64,000 nt of DNA from NCBI GenBank assembly GCA_944384585.1, contig CALWTY010000002.1, positions 27,541-91,540 of the forward strand. Direction: 5' to 3'. A program made the translations under genes and the position numbers. Positions 15,320-23,312 of the stretch are shown piece after piece; the first letter of the stretch is position 1; every line of letters starts with the position of its first letter. Source of the DNA: an uncultured Clostridia bacterium (GTDB taxonomy: Bacteria; Bacillota; Clostridia; Oscillospirales; CAG-272). The notes below the pieces were generated by a model. It worked only from the letters and a program-made list of their open reading frames with translations. It was not told where the DNA came from and did not search any database.

Positions 15320-16984
15320 TTATACGTTGGCAATCAGTGTGGTCAGGGATTTTCTCTGACCTTCGGTAGGCTCCTTCAGTTTGCCATTCTTCAAGAGTGT
15401 AGTGATGCAGTGTACCAGAAACCATCCGTCAGCGTGGAATACAAACTGCAGTTCATACTCTTTTACCTTTCTAAGATGCGCAGGAACAGATTCCAGTACA
15501 GCCTCGGCATAAGGAGCCTTCAGTGCTTCAAAGTCAGTCCGGTACTTTGCCTTGATTCGCTCGCCGATGGCAAGGAGTTTATTTTGAATCTCTTTGCTTG
15601 CCAGCACAACAATCTGCCATGCAGACTTGAAGTATCCGTCGTAATCTCCGTTGGTTTTTACACAACCACGTTCTGCAAGCCATGCATATTCATCCTTTGA
15701 AAGACGGTCCTCAAACTCTCTTTCATAAAGTGAGAGAATACGTTTGGATTCTTCAGAATACTTGAGCCTATAACCATCTCCACGGTCAGACCACTCGCTG
15801 TCGATCTGCCAAAGAATCCGCTCTCCGTTGCCATTCCACATAGGACCGCACCAGTTTCTCATATAAACATAGTCATCAGGAAGAACCATTTCATCCGGCA
15901 CTACAGACGCGTGATAGATATTATGAGCACCATCCGGACGGATCGTGGCAACCTCTTCAAAAGAAATGCTCTCATCCATCAGTTTCTCACCGGACCAAGC
16001 TGCTATATAAGGAATCAGCGTCCACAGGATGAAATTACGGTCCGCTTTAGGCGACTCAGTCAAGGAGATGGGAGCGTCAGTTTGACCACATAAGATGTCC
16101 GGATCGTCAAGGATGCCGGAAGAGGTCAGCTCATCATACAGATCGTTCGCAAACAGCTCAGCAGCACGCTTGTACATATCGTTCTGCATGGTAAGCAGTT
16201 CTGCAGTCGGCTCGCTGATGATGAAGTTGATAATGTACTTATCCTTTTGTGCCTGCAGGAAGCCGTATTCCTCAAGGAATTCAACTTCTGTTTCCACGTA
16301 CACAGGGGAAACACCCAAGTCATCGGCAATCTCGTTAATGGTCTTTGCCGTATTACGCACACAATAGCAGATATTCTGTAACAGTGTTGAACGGAAGAAC
16401 TCATCGGGAGACTTTTTGCCCACGGAACCGTTGATGCCGTAGGAGTGGAATTTAATAGGGTTAAACTTGAGTTCGCTCGGCTTTCTCATCGTATCCATAC
16501 CTCTTTTCAGTTCTTTTTTTGCTTCAAACAAGTGCCATTTGACAGTGCCGAGAGGAATATCCAGTTCTTTGGCAATATCTGCCTGATTTCGATTCTCGAA
16601 ATAGAACGCTACCACAATTCTTCTTTGCAGCTTAGAAAGGTAAGCAATCTCGGTCTGGAGACGATGGATAGCGTCACGATTGTCGTCGGTGTCCGGCTCA
16701 GAGTACGGATCTGCGATCAGCTCCGCAACCTCATCAATAGAAACACCGACCATACTTTTCGCTGTGTCACGATAATAGTTGCTGAGCGTGTTATGGGCAA
16801 CGGTCCAGATGAACTTTCCCATGTCCGCAACGTCATCCTTGATAAGGAGCGCACGGAACGCTCTTATCGCAATCTCCTGCGACAGATCCTCTGCATCGTG
16901 GATGCTTTTACACCTCTTCAGAGCAAATCCGAATATAGGTTTCAGGTATTCAGTTATGATTTTCTCTACGTCTTGTCTGTTCAC
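15320..16984 (-). CDS. ECF-like sigma-70 family sigma factor fused to a ~380-aa C-terminal extension with a second winged-HTH-like segment
   Basis: Sigma region 2 (HDAEDLSQEIAIRAFRAL...WTVAHNTLSNYYR) and region 4 (YLSKLQRRIVVAFYFENRNQADIAKELDIPLGTVKWHLFEAKKELK) are followed by a long unrecognised domain (NEIADDLGVSPVYVETEVEFLEEYGFL...). The start is taken at the GTG at 16984, 7 nt after GAGAGGAG. The tracked start at 17023 has no RBS. Confidence 0.8.
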   Translation of the reverse strand: MNRQDVEKIITEYLKPIFGFALKRCKSIHDAEDLSQEIAIRAFRALLIKDDVADMGKFIWTVAHNTLSNYYRDTAKSMVGVSIDEVAELIADPYSEPDTDDNRDAIHRLQTEIAYLSKLQRRIVVAFYFENRNQADIAKELDIPLGTVKWHLFEAKKELKRGMDTMRKPSELKFNPIKFHSYGINGSVGKKSPDEFFRSTLLQNICYCVRNTAKTINEIADDLGVSPVYVETEVEFLEEYGFLQAQKDKYIINFIISEPTAELLTMQNDMYKRAAELFANDLYDELTSSGILDDPDILCGQTDAPISLTESPKADRNFILWTLIPYIAAWSGEKLMDESISFEEVATIRPDGAHNIYHASVVPDEMVLPDDYVYMRNWCGPMWNGNGERILWQIDSEWSDRGDGYRLKYSEESKRILSLYEREFEDRLSKDEYAWLAERGCVKTNGDYDGYFKSAWQIVVLASKEIQNKLLAIGERIKAKYRTDFEALKAPYAEAVLESVPAHLRKVKEYELQFVFHADGWFLVHCITTLLKNGKLKEPTEGQRKSLTTLIANV

Positions 16985-17070
16985 TTGTTGGCTCCTCTCG
17001 AAAGCTTTCACCCATATAGACACGCGAATCTGAAAAGGTTGGAACTTTTTGAAAAAATTTTTTGGTAGTT

Positions 17071-17709
17071 TTATTGTTGTTTATAAATGATTTGATCGCA
17101 ACTCAAATTGACCGCGCTTAAGTTTCCCGCGCATTCTATTGATTTTGCTTCGATTTTGTAACATTCGGCAATATCTTTGCAAGTGATTTTTTGAGCGTTC
17201 AATTCGTTTGCTTTTATATTTCCGTCAGCTTTTACATCGCCGTTAATTGTGCTGCTTTGTATGCTTTGATGGCAAACTACGTCTCCGTTTATAGAGCTAT
17301 CTGACATTAGGTGTCCATAAACCTCCACCTTAAAATACTGAGTTCTATCGTTGCAATCGTGAGGGAATGCTATTTCGATTGGAGGTTCATCCGGAGAAAT
17401 TTTAGAAGTAACCTTTAATACTTTTGTTCCTCTCATTTGAACTACTCTTATGACGTCATCATCTTTCATAAATGAATGAATGTCCGAATAATCCATAATG
17501 CTATCTGAAAACAGCACATCAATTGAAACGCCAAATAGCTTCGCAATGTCAGGAAGCAGCTGAATATCCGGACAGCACTGTGCTGACTCCCATTTGGAAA
17601 CCGCTTGATTGGTTACGCCAAGGGCGCACGCCAGTTCTTCTTGTGTAAGACCCTTCTGTTTTCTAAGAAAGGCAATTTGTTCATTGATCTTAATTGTAGT
17701 CATATTCAA
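17071..17709 (-). CDS. XRE-family HTH regulator with a C-terminal repetitive beta-helix (bactofilin/DUF4097-like) tail
   Basis: INEQIAFLRKQKGLTQEELACALGVTNQAVSKWESAQCCPDIQLLPDIAKLFGVSIDVLF is an HTH_3 domain. The tail has repeated INGDV.../IKA.../IEC... strands. A GAGGTA RBS is present. Confidence 0.85.
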   Translation of the reverse strand: MNMTTIKINEQIAFLRKQKGLTQEELACALGVTNQAVSKWESAQCCPDIQLLPDIAKLFGVSIDVLFSDSIMDYSDIHSFMKDDDVIRVVQMRGTKVLKVTSKISPDEPPIEIAFPHDCNDRTQYFKVEVYGHLMSDSSINGDVVCHQSIQSSTINGDVKADGNIKANELNAQKITCKDIAECYKIEAKSIECAGNLSAVNLSCDQIIYKQQ

Positions 17710-17740
17710 GTACCTCGTGTTTTTTATTTTCGTAGCTACA

Positions 17741-17768
17741 ATTATATTTTACCGATAAGCAGCTTCAA
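17741..17768 (-). promoter_or_regulatory. candidate promoter of the XRE/sigma operon
   Basis: On the minus strand: TTGAAG (17768-17763), 16-nt spacer, TATAAT (17746-17741). Confidence 0.45.
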
Positions 17769-17786
17769 AAACAATGACGCATTAGT

Positions 17787-18377
17787 TTGATGAGTCTGTG
17801 TATTATCCAACTTCCGGTTGGAAGCTCTGTTGTAAAAATGCCGCCCGCAAAACCCGAGCGCATATCGCCCCTGCGGGTGAACGTGCCGGCGGGGAACACG
17901 CGCATCGCGTCGGTGCTCAGAACCCTGTGCGGAACGGGAATCCGGGTGAGCGAGCTGCCCTATATCACCGTTGAGGCGGTGAAGGCGGGGAAGGCGGTGG
18001 TGAACTGTAAAAATAAAACACGGGTCATTTTTATCCCCACGTCGATTCAGAAGCTGTTAAAGCCATATATGAAAAGATCCGGCATTACAGCCGGAGCGAT
18101 CTTTGTAACAAGGAGTGGAAAGCCGCTGAACCGGCGGAACATCCGGCGGGATATGAAAGCCCTCTGTGAGCGGGCAGGCGTATCCCCGAACAAGGTGTTT
18201 CCGCACAATCTGCGGCACCTGTTTGCCCGGACATTTTATTCACTCGAAAAAGACATTGTACGTTTGGCCGATTTGCTGGGGCACAGCAGCATCAATACCA
18301 CCCGGATTTATACCATGGAAACCGGCGACGGTCACAGGCTCCGTCTGGAACGGGTCGAAAAACTGCTGATGACATAA
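17787..18377 (+). CDS. tyrosine recombinase with catalytic domain only (either N-terminally truncated or a FimB/FimE-sized short form)
   Basis: All catalytic signatures are present: GTGIRVSEL (Arg), HNLRHLFA (His-x-x-Arg), LGHSSINTTRIY (His, Tyr). No N-terminal core-binding domain is present. The high-GC, protein-like sequence begins only near 17838, right at the low-GC/high-GC junction. Confidence 0.8.
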   Translation: MMSLCIIQLPVGSSVVKMPPAKPERISPLRVNVPAGNTRIASVLRTLCGTGIRVSELPYITVEAVKAGKAVVNCKNKTRVIFIPTSIQKLLKPYMKRSGITAGAIFVTRSGKPLNRRNIRRDMKALCERAGVSPNKVFPHNLRHLFARTFYSLEKDIVRLADLLGHSSINTTRIYTMETGDGHRLRLERVEKLLMT

Positions 18378-18387
18378 GGCTGATTAT
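18367..18387. repeat. left arm of a 21-bp perfect inverted repeat (IR-L)
   Basis: TGATGACATAAGGCTGATTAT. It overlaps the recombinase stop codon (18375-18377). Confidence 0.95.
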
Positions 18388-18427
18388 GTCTTCAATTCCA
18401 CATAACTATACCATTTTATTTATTTTT

Positions 18428-18456
18428 ATTATACCATAATCCGACCGATTCCGCAA
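18428..18456 (-). promoter_or_regulatory. extended -10 promoter inside the IR-flanked segment, currently firing leftward
   Basis: On the minus strand: TTGCGG (18456-18451), 17-nt spacer, TGgTATAAT (18436-18428). Confidence 0.6.
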
Positions 18457-18477
18457 TACATATCGCTAAAAAAGTTA

Positions 18478-18547
18478 AAAAGGGCATGAAAAACAAGCCG
18501 GGATTATCCACGATTTTCCTCCGGCTGTCTTTTCATGCCCTTTTTAT
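18478..18547. terminator. strong bidirectional hairpin terminator inside the IR-flanked segment
   Basis: AAAAGGGCATGAAAA (18478-18492) pairs perfectly with TTTTCATGCCCTTTT (18530-18544). There is an inner AGCCGG/CCGGCT stem and A/T runs on both sides. Confidence 0.8.
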
Positions 18548-18623
18548 TTGCCGCAGATATTACGGCAGCTTTTTAGACGTTTGAAATACTGCTCAGTATT
18601 TATTTCCCGGTTCTGTCAGCGAA

Positions 18624-18644
18624 ATAATCAGCCTTATGTCATCA
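18624..18644. repeat. right arm of the 21-bp perfect inverted repeat (IR-R)
   Basis: ATAATCAGCCTTATGTCATCA is the exact reverse complement of 18367-18387. Confidence 0.95.
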
Positions 18645-18783
18645 TGGATGGCGCGAGCAGCCTGACGCCGTTTGGCGGGGAGGCTTCCCGTAAGCGGGGA
18701 AGACGGCCGTGACGGATAGATCATTCGGGGGGAATCACCCTGCCCGAATGTATATCATATTTATTTTTTTGAGGAGGAAGACA

Positions 18784-19476
18784 ATGAGAAACGAAAGAAA
18801 ATCGCTGATCCTCAGCGGACTTTCCGTGCTGATGTGTCTGGTCGTGCTTGTCGGTGCGACCTGGGCATGGTTCACGGATTCAGTAAGCAGCAGCAGCAAC
18901 AAGCTGCAGGCGGGCGTTCTGGATGTTCAGCTGCTGAAAGACGGAGAGGATATCAGCAATTCCGAGGAAAAGGTGTTTGACTACCACCTTTGGGAGCCCG
19001 GCTATTCTGCCGGCGCGAGCCTTTCCGTAAAGAACAACGGATCACTTGCTCTCAAATATGAGCTTCTGTTCCAAAACATTACGGTCAAGACAGGGCTTGA
19101 AAATGCGACCGGCGATCTCCAAAAGTACGAAGAGCACCTGGCGGAAGCCACCGGCGATATCAGCGAGGTGCTGGATGTGTATCTGCTGGACAGCAACCGC
19201 GCTCCCACGGCAGAGGACACCCCGGCGGGGACGCTGAAGGACTATATGGCGGGGAAGACCCTTCAAACCGGGTTCCTTCTTGCCGGACAAACCGGCAATG
19301 CCGTCCATATCGTCATCAAGATGCGGGAAGATGCCGATAACCGCTATCAGAACGCTTCTGCGAGCTTTGATATGACTACTCATCTCAGAATGAAGAGAGA
19401 ATTCCCTTTGCATTTAAAGGACTCAATCTCCGATATCGCTACAACGAAGGCTTTACGGAAACGTTTGAGGATGTAG
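18784..19476 (+). CDS. TasA/camelysin-family protein with a SipW-dependent-type signal peptide; the last ~35 codons are probably out of frame
   Basis: MRNERKSLILSGLSVLMCLVVLVGATWAWFTDS...QAGVLDV...PGYSAGASLSVKNNGSLALKY...NRYQNASASFDMT parallels B. subtilis TasA (GGTWAAFND, ASGTLDL, NNGSLAIK, NKYQGNSIKLQFSFEATQ). GAGGAGGA RBS. Confidence 0.7.
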   Translation: MRNERKSLILSGLSVLMCLVVLVGATWAWFTDSVSSSSNKLQAGVLDVQLLKDGEDISNSEEKVFDYHLWEPGYSAGASLSVKNNGSLALKYELLFQNITVKTGLENATGDLQKYEEHLAEATGDISEVLDVYLLDSNRAPTAEDTPAGTLKDYMAGKTLQTGFLLAGQTGNAVHIVIKMREDADNRYQNASASFDMTTHLRMKREFPLHLKDSISDIATTKALRKRLRM

Positions 19477-20127
19477 ACGAGGAAGGGAACAAGGTCACCA
19501 AAACGGTTTTGAAGTCCGTCCTTCATCTCGGTGAATCGGATTCTCAAGCGGAACGCGGGGACATGGACAAAATCGCAAAGTATCTCGATTACAGCCGCAA
19601 AGGCCCCCACTTGACGACGACGGAGCTTCTGGCGCTGACGCCGGAGGATCTGGATTTCGACTTTATTGACGCCGAGATGTTTCTTGACCTGATGCACGAG
19701 TGCCTGACCTCGGAGCCGGATTCTTACGGGCAATATCGGGGGATCCCCTCATGGGGGGCTCTTTACCGAACCCGTATATGTCAATGACTACAAGATTCAG
19801 ATCGGGCTGCTGGGCGGATCCGGACGAATCGAACTGCTGATGTTTGACGTGCTGTACCCGACGGGAGACGGACAGACCGATTATGTTCAACTCTACGATC
19901 TCGTGAAAAACGGAGCGGCAAGCGAGGAGCAGGAGGAGCTTCTCGATACGCTTCAGAGAATTGAGCGGGGCGTTGCGGAAAACAACAATCACCGACAGTT
20001 CTACGATGAGCTGGGAGACAAGGTGATTGCCGGCGTTTCCCTCGCCCGTCTCTATACCATGCTCGATAATATCGTCAAACTCGAGTATTCTCAATATCTT
20101 GAAGCGAAGCTCGGCGCGCCGCAATAA
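19368..20127 (+). pseudogene. frameshifted continuation of the TasA-like gene (tracked as ORFs 19509-19787 and 19840-20127)
   Basis: The expected ..ATQ-like motif (SSQNEE) appears in the -1 frame from about 19378. That frame runs to 19787 and the sequence then continues in the original frame from about 19713. The frames can be joined by removing one G from the G6 run at 19753-19758. Neither piece has an RBS or a convincing start. Confidence 0.5.
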
Positions 20128-20194
20128 ACCAAGAAGCCTCGGGTTCGGCGTATGCCGACCCGGGGCTTTCGTCTTCTGACAAAGGAGACAGTAC

Positions 20195-20953
20195 ATGATC
20201 GTTTGCGAAGGTCTGAACAAGCAGTACGGCAAGCAAGTCGTTCTTTCCGACTTTTCCTGCCGTTTTGAGGATACCGGCTTCTATTTGCTCTGCGGAGAAA
20301 GCGGAAGCGGAAAAACCACACTGATCAATATCCTGTCGGGGATGATCCCCTTTGACGGAGGCAGGGTCACGGTCAACGATCGTGAATTTCATTCCGTCGT
20401 CGAGCCGGCGGAGGCGGGAGTCGAATTCGATTACATCACGCAGGCCCCCTTTTTTGCCGACTTCCTTTCCGTTTCCGAAAATCTGGAGCTGATCTCCGAC
20501 GACAAGGAGGGGATTCGGCAGATCCTGGCGCAATTCCGGCTCACCCATGCCGCCGATCAGTCCCCCGCCGCCCTGTCCGGCGGAGAGCGCCAGCGGTTAT
20601 CCATCGCGCGCGCCTGCCTCTCGAAAAAGAAGGTGTTGTTCCTTGACGAGCCGACCGCCGCGCTGGATGAAGACAATAAAGCCGCCGTCGTTGCATTGCT
20701 GAAGGAGCTGAAAAAGGACACGCTTGTGATCTGTGCTTCCCACGACGAGATGGCGAGGGGCTACGCGGATCGGATCCTCTCCTTTCATAAGTGCAGCGAA
20801 ACGAGGGAGCCCCCCGCCGCCGTCCGCTCCGCGCCCGTCCGCCGCCGCGCCCCGCAGAGAAACCGCAGCGGCGAACGGAAATTCTGTGTGTTTCTGCGCT
20901 TGCGCTCCTTCTCATCCTGCTCGGAGATCTGCCTTCCCACAAGCTGGCGCTGA
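20195..20953 (+). CDS. ABC transporter ATP-binding protein (MacB/FtsE-like) with an aberrant Arg/Pro-rich tail
   Basis: Walker A GESGSGKTT, signature LSGGERQR, Walker B VLFLDEPTAALD, H-loop ASHD. After ...ADRILSFHK the sequence turns into low-complexity R/P/S text and overlaps the next ORF by 163 nt. Confidence 0.85.
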   Translation: MIVCEGLNKQYGKQVVLSDFSCRFEDTGFYLLCGESGSGKTTLINILSGMIPFDGGRVTVNDREFHSVVEPAEAGVEFDYITQAPFFADFLSVSENLELISDDKEGIRQILAQFRLTHAADQSPAALSGGERQRLSIARACLSKKKVLFLDEPTAALDEDNKAAVVALLKELKKDTLVICASHDEMARGYADRILSFHKCSETREPPAAVRSAPVRRRAPQRNRSGERKFCVFLRLRSFSSCSEICLPTSWR

Positions 20954-22014
20954 CCTACGAGCACAGCTATCGTCTTAACGGACTGACGCTGACGACCATG
21001 TCCGGGGAAGGGACCGATTATGACACGCTCTGCGGGATGGAGAAGGTCAAAAAGGTGGTCTTGTCCTATGCGGGAAGTACTCCCGACGCGACCCAGTCCC
21101 TGCCCGATTACGAGCTGTCTCTCTACGTCCTGCCGTTTGAGCGGGAATATTTCAATCTGGCCGACAAGGTCCGATACGGCAGTTACTTTACCGAAGAGGC
21201 TCAGGTGCTGCTGTCCTTTGAGGAGGCGGAGAAGCTCAGTCCCGGAAACCACGGGGCGCTGATCGGAAGCACGATCTCAAAGAATATCTATTCCCTCGGC
21301 AGGATGAATTTTGAAATCGTCGGGGTTCTCGACCGGCTGAACGAGTTTGAAAAGAAGTATTTACTCTCCCTCGGCATGGACACGGATTCGATCTATTTCA
21401 ACAGCAGGCTCACCGATCGCTTCATCGATCCGGAGGACTATTATATGCAGAGTCAGCGGGACTATTATCTTTTCTTCGATTCCTTCCGCGATCTCTCGGC
21501 GTTTTACAAGGAATATGCCGGGCAATTCGATGAGAAGGGGGAGAGCCTGCTCATCAGCTCAAGACTCTACTCCGGAAGGGTGACGTCGGCCGTGACGACG
21601 CTTTCCATCCTGCTGATTCCGCTTTCCGTCTTTATCGCCCTTTTTACCGTCGTCTTTTACGCGACGCTTCTGAAGACGGAGATCACCTACAACAACCGCT
21701 TTATTGCGGTCTTTGAGTACTCCGGCTATTCCAAGAGGCGGGTCCTCGCCTCCTTCACCGCGATCCATATGCTGCGGCTGATTCTCTCCCTGCTGATCTC
21801 CCTGGCGATCGCCCTTCTTTTCACCGAAACGGTCAATATGATCAACAGAAAGCTCGTATTGATCGAATTCCGGCCGTTCACGCTGAATTATCTGCTGATG
21901 GCGGCCTTCCTGCTGTTCGTCGTCCTGCTGTCATGGCTGTGCATTGCCGTCTCGCTTCGGCGGGTGAGGATCTCAAGCTGGTACGATAATCTGAAATTAA
22001 GACTCGCTATTTGA
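20791..22014 (+). CDS. FtsX-family ABC transporter permease (start uncertain)
   Basis: TM1 (ILCVSALALLLILLG), a large extracytoplasmic domain, then three C-terminal TM helices (LLIPLSVFIALFTVVFYATLL...LISLAIALLF...LLMAAFLLFVVLLSWLCIAVSLRRV). The tracked GTG follows an in-frame TAA directly. Confidence 0.7.
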   Translation: MQRNEGAPRRRPLRARPPPRPAEKPQRRTEILCVSALALLLILLGDLPSHKLALTYEHSYRLNGLTLTTMSGEGTDYDTLCGMEKVKKVVLSYAGSTPDATQSLPDYELSLYVLPFEREYFNLADKVRYGSYFTEEAQVLLSFEEAEKLSPGNHGALIGSTISKNIYSLGRMNFEIVGVLDRLNEFEKKYLLSLGMDTDSIYFNSRLTDRFIDPEDYYMQSQRDYYLFFDSFRDLSAFYKEYAGQFDEKGESLLISSRLYSGRVTSAVTTLSILLIPLSVFIALFTVVFYATLLKTEITYNNRFIAVFEYSGYSKRRVLASFTAIHMLRLILSLLISLAIALLFTETVNMINRKLVLIEFRPFTLNYLLMAAFLLFVVLLSWLCIAVSLRRVRISSWYDNLKLRLAI

Positions 22015-22110
22015 TACTAAGATATGCGGCATAGGCACAAGGGTGTCGGGGTGTCGTTTAGGGTGTCGGTTGAGTGACTGGCGCTATTTTTGTATATGGG
22101 AGATTTGAAA

Positions 22111-22302
22111 ATGCCGACAATATCAAAAAAAGAGCTGGAGGATTACCAGCAGTTGTGTAAAGATCGAAATAACGGTAGAATATTAACACCAGATGGGCTT
22201 GGGCTCATCTGTGAAGCGTATAAAAATGATCCAGAAGCCATCGGAAAGCATATGCTGGAAACATTGGCCCGGATTCAATCAATAAAAAAGGTGGGATCAT
22301 GA
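22111..22302 (+). CDS. small hypothetical protein in a low-GC patch
   Basis: MPTISKKELEDYQQLCKDRNNGRILTPDGLGLICEAYKNDPEAIGKHMLETLARIQSIKK. GGGAGA lies upstream and the stop overlaps the next ATG (ATGATGA coupling). No family was recognised. Confidence 0.35.
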   Translation: MPTISKKELEDYQQLCKDRNNGRILTPDGLGLICEAYKNDPEAIGKHMLETLARIQSIKKVGS

Positions 22303-23312
22303 TGAGCGATTATAAATTTATGAAATTGCTGAAAGACAAAAAAGTTGCTGATGCATATCAGTATTTCGAAGCGAGTGTATATAAGTTGTATTTGGCAGAA
22401 TTAAGCTATTCTGCCCTTGAGACGGTTATCGCACAGTATCAAGAAAACGAGAAAACATATGTTGAAAAAGTCTACGAGGATGCACTTACCACCGGAAAGG
22501 GTGCATATAAAGTTCACACAAACTGCATTGAGTATTTCGGTACTCAAGTATCTCCGACGGTTATGATGGATAAGTTAACTAAGCGGAATCCTGTATCAGG
22601 TCGATCGCTCCGTCCGTTTCGATCAAGGGACAGGAACCCGCAATTTTACACCTACCTGTTCTCCGACGTCTATTACGGAAATCTGGAAAAAACCAACGGT
22701 ATGTTTCTGTTCATCCCGTATGAGACGCTGACCGCCTTCGGCTCCCCTTCCGAGGAGAACGAGGTAATGCGCTGTGTCTGCCGCGGCCTTTTCGAGGACG
22801 AGGAAACCTATCGCGCTGTCCGGTATATCGCAGGCCCGGAAAGAGAATTTCCGGGGTCTTCCTCCGCGAAAAACAATAAAATCAACGTGTTTGAATCGAT
22901 CATCAGAGACGCGCAGTACACCGTCAATCTCGTCACGATGATCATATTCGGCATTCTGATCGTCTGTTTCCTCATCGCCTGCCTCTTCGTAAGCTCCCAG
23001 GTTCGGATCGAGCTGTTCTATCGCAGAAAAGAGCTTGGCTTCCTTCAGATTTTCGGCGTCGGGAAAAAGCGCGTCAGAACGCTTGTGATAACGGGCTATC
23101 TGCTGAAAATCCTGTATTCCGTGGGCGTGTCCCTTGCGGTATATTGCCTGTGCCTGGCGGGGTACGGAGCGGGAACGGGACGCTTGCTCCTCTTCCATCC
23201 GATCCACGCGCCGCTGCTGATCCTGCTGATCACGGGCTTCTATCTTTGGTCGGTTTCCCGGGCGACTGCGGGGTTTCTGAAAAAAAGCACGATGGAGCTG
23301 ATCACGGGGTGA
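22299..23312 (+). CDS. chimeric ORF: a low-GC N-terminal ~100 aa of unknown origin fused to the C-terminal half of a second FtsX-type permease
   Basis: Composition switches near 22600. The C-terminus LVTMIIFGILIVCFLIACLFV...RRKELGFLQIFGVGKKRVRTLVITGYLLKILYSVGVSLAVYCLCLAGY...LLILLITGFYLWSV is an FtsX TM2-4 block. Confidence 0.55.
   Translation: MMSDYKFMKLLKDKKVADAYQYFEASVYKLYLAELSYSALETVIAQYQENEKTYVEKVYEDALTTGKGAYKVHTNCIEYFGTQVSPTVMMDKLTKRNPVSGRSLRPFRSRDRNPQFYTYLFSDVYYGNLEKTNGMFLFIPYETLTAFGSPSEENEVMRCVCRGLFEDEETYRAVRYIAGPEREFPGSSSAKNNKINVFESIIRDAQYTVNLVTMIIFGILIVCFLIACLFVSSQVRIELFYRRKELGFLQIFGVGKKRVRTLVITGYLLKILYSVGVSLAVYCLCLAGYGAGTGRLLLFHPIHAPLLILLITGFYLWSVSRATAGFLKKSTMELITG

Follow-up and report, generated by a model that had tools for sequence, protein, structure and literature searches.

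We examined a stretch of 64,000 nucleotides (nt) from an uncultured Clostridia bacterium (contig CALWTY010000002.1, positions 27,541 to 91,540; hereafter the window), in which a truncated tyrosine recombinase gene is directly followed by a pair of inverted repeats enclosing a predicted promoter and a terminator-like hairpin. The evidence laid out below supports placing this element in a family of invertible promoters (invertons) of gut Clostridia of the Oscillospiraceae/Ruminococcaceae type, whose members lie between a recombinase gene and a downstream gene or operon, usually for surface proteins. The copy in the window is likely to be a genuine inverton of this family that rests in the OFF orientation and is no longer switched by its own enzyme; it is probably a relic.

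A probable inverton at the 3' end of a recombinase remnant

The left arm of the repeat, TGATGACATAAGGCTGATTAT (18367-18387), recurs as its exact reverse complement at 18624-18644. This perfect pair of 21 nt lengthens to 24 nt at 96% identity (one mismatch), and the 236 bp between the perfect arms constitute a short (<1 kb) segment of the kind that defines an inverton. Allowing up to 3 mismatches, the 21-nt repeat has only 2 copies in the 64 kb, namely, the two arms themselves. The same repeat found 0 matches in 100 dinucleotide-preserving shuffles of the window, and a chance origin can hence be ruled out. Within each arm lies a core site of two inverted half-sites around a spacer, and the spacer of the right site, TCAGCC, is the inverse of that of the left, GGCTGA. 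The inner half-site of the right repeat, GAAATAA, carries one mismatch against GACATAA (position 18623); the loci examined contain only one further half-site with a mismatch, in the related locus L027. The stop codon of the recombinase remnant (TAA, 18375-18377) falls within the left arm.

The interior is distinctly AT-rich, with a GC content of 0.36 across 18400-18599 versus 0.50-0.55 in the flanks. On its minus strand lies a predicted extended -10 promoter that points leftward and out of the segment, toward the recombinase, with a start predicted near 18421. It was missed by a generic scan because its -35 element, TTGCGG, fits the consensus at only 3/6 positions; in the present orientation, the promoter scan detected no rightward promoter on the plus strand. 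Behind the promoter sits a hairpin resembling an intrinsic terminator (arms 18476-18501 and 18521-18546), and the element as a whole folds at z = -8.4. Judging from their sequences, both the promoter and the terminator are presumably active. A search against Rfam returned no riboswitch, leader, or other RNA family anywhere in the window.

The original prediction for this locus, made from the letters of the window, had described the perfect 21-bp repeats, the AT-rich interior, the minus-strand promoter with a terminator behind it, the overlap of the left repeat with the recombinase stop codon, and a TasA-like gene starting about 140 nt past the right repeat. All of these can be read in the sequence as described. 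It had further proposed an architecture like that of fimS, caught in the OFF orientation; the conserved module and the two orientations found in homologous loci support the former, and the latter matches the state of those homologs in which the promoter faces the recombinase.

A conserved recombinase-switch module

A protein search with the remnant recovered many homologs with 70-89% identity, almost all of them 273-287 amino acids (aa) in length and possessing both the PF02899 and PF00589 domains. We fetched contigs for two of these homologs, P0004 (279 aa, L006-L015) and P0006 (275 aa, L016-L025). On the 3' side of every P0004 and P0006 gene we found a repeat pair with its left arm over the stop codon and a segment of 210-240 bp, past which lies an operon coding for a SipW-like signal peptidase, two TasA-like proteins, and a VWA protein (P0004) or several TasA-like proteins (P0006). 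The same layout is seen in Hydrogeniiclostridium mannosilyticum, in several metagenome-assembled genomes (MAGs) of Ruminococcaceae/Eubacteriales, one of which holds two family loci (L027 and L031), and in 14 further metagenome contigs recovered by scanning JGI/ENA data with the left-junction pattern. The window strain was not among these 14 loci; its closest intact relative, L047, shares 86.8% DNA identity and the GGCTGA spacer with the window, encodes a full-length recombinase of 279 aa, carries both sites without a mismatch, and is also OFF. Plasmid and phage collections yielded distant recombinase matches only and no close copy.

The family sites follow a simple pattern, GACATAA-N6-TTATGTC, i.e., inverted 7-bp half-sites flanking an asymmetric 6-bp spacer (7-6-7), with the outer half-site frequently extended by TGAT. 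In every family locus the left site overlaps the stop codon of the recombinase gene. Loci recovered with this motif have invariant half-sites, bar the one mismatch each in the window and L027; those of the distant members from Pusillibacter and Monoglobus differ. The spacers vary by lineage (GGCTGA, GGTTGA, GACTGA, and GAATGA; TTTTGA in Monoglobus), and wherever at least two sites were recovered from one locus, the partner sites always share the spacer in inverted orientation. Indeed, in the consensus fold of six variants, two spacer columns change together on both sides. Such half-sites with matched spacers are those of tyrosine recombinase core sites.

The invertible cartridge is itself conserved in its parts. 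An alignment of the six variants has a mean column identity of 78%, and the TTG of the -35 element and the TGnTAnnnT of the extended -10 element are invariant across it; a divergent member, L032, displays TTGACA-17-TGcTACAAT. The terminator stem is kept family-wide by compensatory changes (alignment columns 105/165, 111/162, and 112/161), and a second, smaller hairpin (columns 76-94) shows two compensatory changes at one pair. The order of elements, site, ~90 nt, terminator, promoter, and site, is constant throughout the family. The segment of the window is collinear, with 76-87% identity, with those of loci in the same orientation and aligns reversed to those of L006, L007, L008, L010, L012, and L013.

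Two distant members come from isolate records that carry no annotation of a switch. In Pusillibacter faecalis pMM59_01 (L062, 4272-4591) the element lies upstream of an S-layer-homology protein and has a third copy of the site, and in Monoglobus pectinilyticus (L063, 4313-4608) a small hypothetical protein is encoded downstream. Both have the left repeat over the recombinase stop codon and interiors of 252-268 bp. Separately, the island around P0004 (L006-L015, 1-5000), with its SprT-like, 77-aa, and 174-aa neighbors and the SipW-TasA-VWA operon, occurs in at least seven left-hand contexts and is therefore either mobile or situated beside a hypervariable region.

Both orientations occur in the family

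The ten P0004 contigs, which derive from ten different samples, have an identical recombinase and near-identical flanks and thus permit a direct comparison of orientation. The promoter faces the SipW/TasA-like operon (ON) in 6/10 (L006, L007, L008, L010, L012, and L013) and the recombinase (OFF) in the remaining 4/10 (L009, L011, L014, and L015). Once oriented, the 252-nt unit formed by two sites and the 212-bp segment is identical letter for letter between L006, L009, and L011. Another ON case is L051; OFF is the commoner orientation in the assemblies, and both orientations are hence present at the level of the family. In most P0004 loci the site is present a third time, 24 nt away from another copy, and among these three-site variants we observed each of the four arrangements to which single inversions of the large segment give rise. 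Such a set is what conservative site-specific recombination at the sites leaves behind; the adjacent recombinase is presumably the invertase.

In the three-site P0004 switches (~5830-6130 in L006), two of the sites delimit a 24-nt mini-segment, resulting in a small shufflon-like system; L011 and L014 have the two-site form. We also noted that several contigs end at or inside the inverton, often a few bases from an arm (L005 at its end, L034 at its start, L035 at its end, and L027, L031, L045, and L049). These ends could reflect an inversion polymorphism in the assembly graph or the repeat alone.

These observations bear on the reading that there is no switch at all and that the window merely displays a chance repeat, the termini of an element resembling a miniature inverted-repeat transposable element (MITE), or the terminator region of the recombinase gene. 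The hairpin does resemble a terminator, and the exact sequence of the window has never been seen inverted. Against this stand the shuffles, the two orientations among the homologs, and the covariation of spacers between partner sites. As to a MITE, raised with the original prediction as one outcome that would overturn it, the unit is single-copy in the window, and in every collection searched the matches in genomes and metagenomes that retain upstream sequence all lie at the 3' end of a gene of the recombinase family, never alone; on this basis, we rejected such an origin. The reading without a switch is thus already refuted at the level of the family, and we give it practically no credence for the window copy.

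Proposed mechanism

Taking these findings together, we propose that in intact members a ~275-aa XerC/D-like tyrosine recombinase, encoded directly upstream with its stop codon inside the left site, would act on both sites. Given identical spacers in opposite orientation, strand exchange would invert the ~210-240 bp between them. In the ON state, the terminator would halt read-through from the recombinase gene and the promoter would drive the surface operon, which usually codes for SipW and TasA-like fiber proteins. In the OFF state, the promoter would fire antisense into the recombinase gene, the bidirectional terminator would block read-through, and the operon would remain silent. The window would then represent such a switch in its silent orientation, whose own enzyme, having lost the N-terminal domain that clamps DNA, could no longer flip the segment.

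A more speculative extension is that the recombinase and the switch together form a portable regulatory cassette, with targets captured by the inverton in a manner reminiscent of integrons. This reading arises because the homology shared by the family stops sharply at the outer edge of the right site, with unrelated cargo beyond: blastn matches between the window and all family loci start at 17867-17889 and stop at 18640-18646. The cargo past the right site indeed varies by lineage, encompassing SipW/TasA/VWA operons, LPXTG proteins, S-layer-homology proteins, and the TasA-like open reading frame (ORF) of the window. Capture might proceed through the recombinase occasionally joining the right site to secondary sites elsewhere. 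We consider this scenario rather unlikely; if true, capture would set an ON/OFF promoter before new surface-structure operons.

State of the window copy

Several lines of evidence suggest that the window copy has lost the ability to switch. The remnant matches PF00589 (E = 1.4e-24) and thus retains a catalytic domain; PF02899, the N-terminal SAM-like core-binding domain of XerC/D-type enzymes, has no match in it, as the original prediction had noted. Its homology to the 275-279 aa homologs begins at about residue 105-114, so that ~105 N-terminal codons are gone. The first ~26 codons of the ORF as called (17790-17866) lie upstream of the DNA homology, with family-like protein beginning at about codon 34 (AGNTR), and upstream of 17867 there is unrelated low-GC DNA with a divergent helix-turn-helix (HTH) gene. 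A protein identical to the remnant (P0001) is encoded by 5 other contigs. The window strain is represented by six independent contigs (L001-L005 and L034), which differ from the window by 0-1 mismatches over the shared region (L002 diverges also at its extreme left contig end), and all six are OFF, i.e., with the promoter directed at the recombinase and away from the downstream genes, as in the window. No flipped copy of the window strain was present among the contigs with an identical recombinase or an identical TasA-like protein, all of which are these six. The case for a relic thus builds on the truncated recombinase, the mutated half-site, the six OFF contigs, and the decay of the downstream genes described below; the same features favor the fossil state that had been offered as a caveat in the original prediction.

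Other observations weigh against a dead switch. The catalytic domain is well preserved: GIRVSE, KNKTR, HNLRH, GHSS, and RIY are readable in the remnant, accounting for the complete R..K..HxxR..H..Y set of catalytic residues. It deviates at 2/61 near-invariant columns, where controls deviate at a mean of 0.47 and a maximum of 3; one column that is 100% W in 112 homologs has changed to R. This signal being only mild, we set aside relaxed selection on the catalytic domain as strong evidence. Further, invertases as small as FimB and FimE (about 200 aa) do function, and the shortness of the enzyme need not mean that it is dead. The uniform OFF state is weak evidence of locking because OFF also predominates among assemblies of members with an intact recombinase, being the state of all ten P0006 loci and of most of L043-L056. 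Assemblies display the majority orientation only, and the window strain may thus include a minority ON population. Two of its contigs, L005 and L034, break at the left repeat, and a full-length paralog could act in trans, given the family-wide conservation of the half-sites.

Hence, it is conceivable, if clearly less probable than a disabled switch, that the segment is still flipped in this strain, by a paralog encoded outside the 64 kb or by the truncated, FimB-sized enzyme itself, and that it continues to phase-vary the TasA-like protein. Any paralog should recognize the sites, and genomes may hold more than one locus, as in the MAG with L027 and L031. The TasA-like gene has kept its domain, signal peptide, and ribosome-binding site, and the breaks in L005 and L034 are those expected of a branching assembly graph. 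However, such breaks at a 21-nt inverted repeat may be assembler artifacts, no second recombinase of the family was found in the 64-kb window, and the domain missing from the remnant is present in all 112 full-length homologs. Moreover, no plus-strand promoter is predicted upstream of the remnant, and the neighboring genes have become pseudogenes, a sign that selection on the locus as a whole is relaxed. Together with the altered half-site and the six OFF contigs, these points lead us to favor an inverton that is no longer switched by its own enzyme.

The strain occurs in SRR32490199, SRR32490202, and SRR32490233 and in the samples behind ERZ28614243, ERZ28636487, and ERZ28616437. In a flipped (ON) copy, the left and right junctions are predicted to read CATAAGGCTGATTATTTCGCTGACAGAACC and GGAATTGAAGACATAATCAGCCTTATGTCATCA or, in longer context, CTGATGACATAAGGCTGATTATTTCGCTGACAGAACC and GTGGAATTGAAGACATAATCAGCCTTATGTCATCATGG, respectively.

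Other lineages have the recombinase gene in two pieces, an N-terminal ORF of ~100-109 aa and a catalytic ORF of ~165 aa (L057-L060, 3662-4501 in L057; L061, 327-1154). The break falls at the same domain junction as the truncation in the window, and one such split allele is found in five contigs from different samples. The split alleles point either to recurrent decay in this recombinase family or to tolerance of a two-piece enzyme.

Downstream and neighboring genes

The features of the locus are collected in Table 1. The only gene placed so as to be driven by the switch is the TasA/camelysin-like ORF, whose ATG (18784) follows the right arm after 140 nt; this interval contains no predicted sigma-70-like promoter. 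The original prediction had regarded this gene as frameshifted. That holds for the sequence fused to its 3' end, which is broken, but not for the TasA-like domain, which is complete from 18784 to ~19380 and aligns end to end with relatives of 181-194 aa up to ~19371-19422. Past this point, the ORF runs out of frame into the next remnant, a deletion at ~19371 having joined it to codon 63 of a ~310-aa gene. We also considered a ~447-aa protein with two compensating frameshifts and dropped it, as the downstream frames belong to the separate 310-aa family.

Table 1. Features of the recombinase-switch locus and the genes downstream of it (window coordinates)
Feature	Position	Strand	Details
Tyrosine recombinase remnant, catalytic domain only	17867..18377	+	ORF as called 17790-18377, 195-196 aa
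Left inverted repeat	18367..18390	.	Core site 18371-18390 = GACATAA-GGCTGA-TTATGTC
Invertible segment between core sites	18391..18620	.	AT-rich; promoter toward recombinase (OFF)
Sigma-70-type extended -10 promoter (predicted)	18428..18456	-	TTGCGG (18456-18451), 17 nt, TGgTATAAT (18436-18428)
Hairpin with flanking A-run and T-run	18476..18546	.	Arms 18476-18501 / 18521-18546; resembles a bidirectional intrinsic terminator
Small conserved hairpin	18549..18567	.	TGCCG-N9-CGGCA; consensus fold columns 76-94
Right inverted repeat	18621..18644	.	Core site 18621-18640 = GAAATAA-TCAGCC-TTATGTC
TasA/camelysin-like ORF	18784..19476	+	230 aa; signal peptide; PF12389 (Peptidase_M73), E = 5e-7
Lipoprotein-like pseudogene (~310 aa)	19371..20100	+	Codons 1-62 missing; frameshift at G6 run 19753-19758
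Fused ABC ATPase-permease pseudogene (638 aa)	20195..21993	+	Frameshift near 20902-20932
Second ABC gene remnant (622 aa)	22579..23309	+	Residues ~382-622; ATPase half deleted

The ATP-binding cassette (ABC) genes farther downstream, which had also been put forward as targets of the switch, turn out to be pseudogene remnants of an unrelated cassette. Relatives possess this cassette in intact form, as genes for proteins of 34, 181, 310, 638, and 622 aa with no recombinase-switch in front, and 19371-23309 represents a degraded version of the five genes in which the first two have been lost and the other three carry frameshifts or truncations. When repaired, the reading of the lipoprotein-like pseudogene is covered to 97% by intact homologs of 303-311 aa (P0135-P0173) with up to 77% identity, and its tblastn match is split over two frames. 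Relatives read its G6 run as G5; the run is not a single-assembly error because it is identical in every contig of the strain that reaches it. The 638-aa pseudogene has residues 1-257 in one frame and 268-631 in another, with ABC_tran and FtsX on separate ORFs. The intact cassettes (L036-L042) are found near HTH/MerR regulators, a tyrosine integrase, and a large serine recombinase, and the cassette looks like a mobile peptide-export or immunity module. With the recombinase, the TasA-like fusion, and the cassette genes all truncated, fused, or frameshifted, the locus is a patchwork of remnants.

The 140-nt leader before the TasA-like ATG holds a GC-rich hairpin at 18722-18750 (CATTCGGG...CCCGAATG), followed by a T-rich stretch to 18770. 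This structure could be a terminator, an attenuator, or a leftover of an earlier context.

On the other side of the recombinase remnant, a low-GC block (16900-17800, 0.35-0.45) contains a divergent gene for a 212-aa HTH_3 protein with a long C-terminal extension. It adjoins a gene for a 567-aa protein with sigma-70 regions 2 and 4 and a large C-terminal domain, and GC rises abruptly at ~17800, where the block meets the recombinase remnant. One possibility is that the locked leftward promoter, once the 5' half of the recombinase gene had been deleted, was co-opted to read through the remnant as a fixed promoter for this HTH regulator (17709-17071, minus strand) and the sigma-factor-like gene (17023-15320, minus strand). 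The geometry would permit it, as both genes are on the minus strand and the promoter lies ~700 nt upstream of the HTH gene. However, the HTH gene has a better-matched promoter of its own (TTGAAG-16-TATAAT, 17768-17741), two weak minus-strand terminator-like hairpins intervene, and related loci lend no support; we accordingly regard co-option as very improbable.

Comparison with known systems

Like the family described here, the fimS switch of Escherichia coli is a short invertible promoter segment bounded by inverted repeats, situated before a surface-fiber operon and with a tyrosine recombinase encoded upstream on the same strand. In both, the expression of the recombinase is probably tied to orientation, through the orientational control of fimE in fimS and through the antisense promoter in the family of the window. 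The fimS element has 9-bp repeats around 314 bp, is served by two recombinases of ~200 aa, and needs IHF and Lrp. The present family differs in its Clostridia hosts, its 20-25-nt sites with 7-6-7 cores, the left one over the stop codon, its single XerC/D-like enzyme of ~275 aa, which has a SAM-like domain at the N terminus, and its built-in terminator.

At the level of the site, parallels are offered by loxP, FRT, and dif, in which two inverted half-sites flank an asymmetric spacer of 6-8 bp that sets the polarity and must match for strand exchange. Likewise, the spacers of the 7-6-7 sites covary between partner sites. In contrast, loxP, FRT, and dif serve excision or dimer resolution rather than a promoter switch, and the half-sites of the family are shorter (7-11 bp).

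The nearest case in Clostridia is that of the RecV switches of Clostridioides difficile (cwpV and flgB), which have imperfect inverted repeats of ~21 bp and segments of ~150-200 bp and control surface proteins (PMC2784873). They share with the present family the Clostridia hosts and a tyrosine recombinase belonging to the XerC/D family. However, recV lies away from its targets and the cwpV switch is devoid of a promoter (PMC2784873), whereas in the family of the window the recombinase is adjacent and the promoter lies inside the segment.

A further parallel is suggested by inverton group 139 of the hCom2 community (Microbiome 2025, PMC11892184). This group comprises 33 invertons, of which 32 belong to Clostridia, and almost all have a tyrosine recombinase of "invertase group 35" within 5 kb; the repeats are 13-25 nt, the interiors are 206-228 bp, and flipping in culture is seen at the read level, e.g., in Intestinimonas butyriciproducens and Clostridium sp. 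D5. Sizes, taxa, and layout, as described there, agree with those of the family of the window, and group 139 is possibly the same family or a sister of it. SipW/TasA-type targets, as found in the present family, are not mentioned in that report. The invertible promoters of the Mpi/Tsr type in Bacteroides, as cataloged with PhaseFinder, are similar in occurring in gut commensals, in controlling surface structures, and in often having the recombinase nearby; they belong to another phylum and differ in promoter consensus, repeat motifs, and recombinase clades.

Our literature search found no paper linking invertons to sipW, TasA, or camelysin and none on Ruminococcaceae invertons with tyrosine recombinases. 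The type of switch is known, and the family may already have been cataloged without a name; what appears to be undescribed is the site rule, the stop codon inside the left site, and the link to TasA-like operons. Invertons are among the main causes of surface heterogeneity in gut bacteria, and their mechanism is known mostly from Bacteroides, E. coli, and C. difficile. The family adds a compact and recognizable module from the poorly studied, mostly uncultured Oscillospiraceae/Ruminococcaceae, one that couples phase variation to SipW/TasA-like fiber operons, LPXTG proteins, and S-layer-homology proteins. The copy in the window, taken alone an ordinary relic, provides an example of the decay of a switch and its fixation in one state. 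By virtue of the rule GACATAA-N6-TTATGTC with matched spacers, switches of this family could be annotated directly from assembled genomes, without read data.

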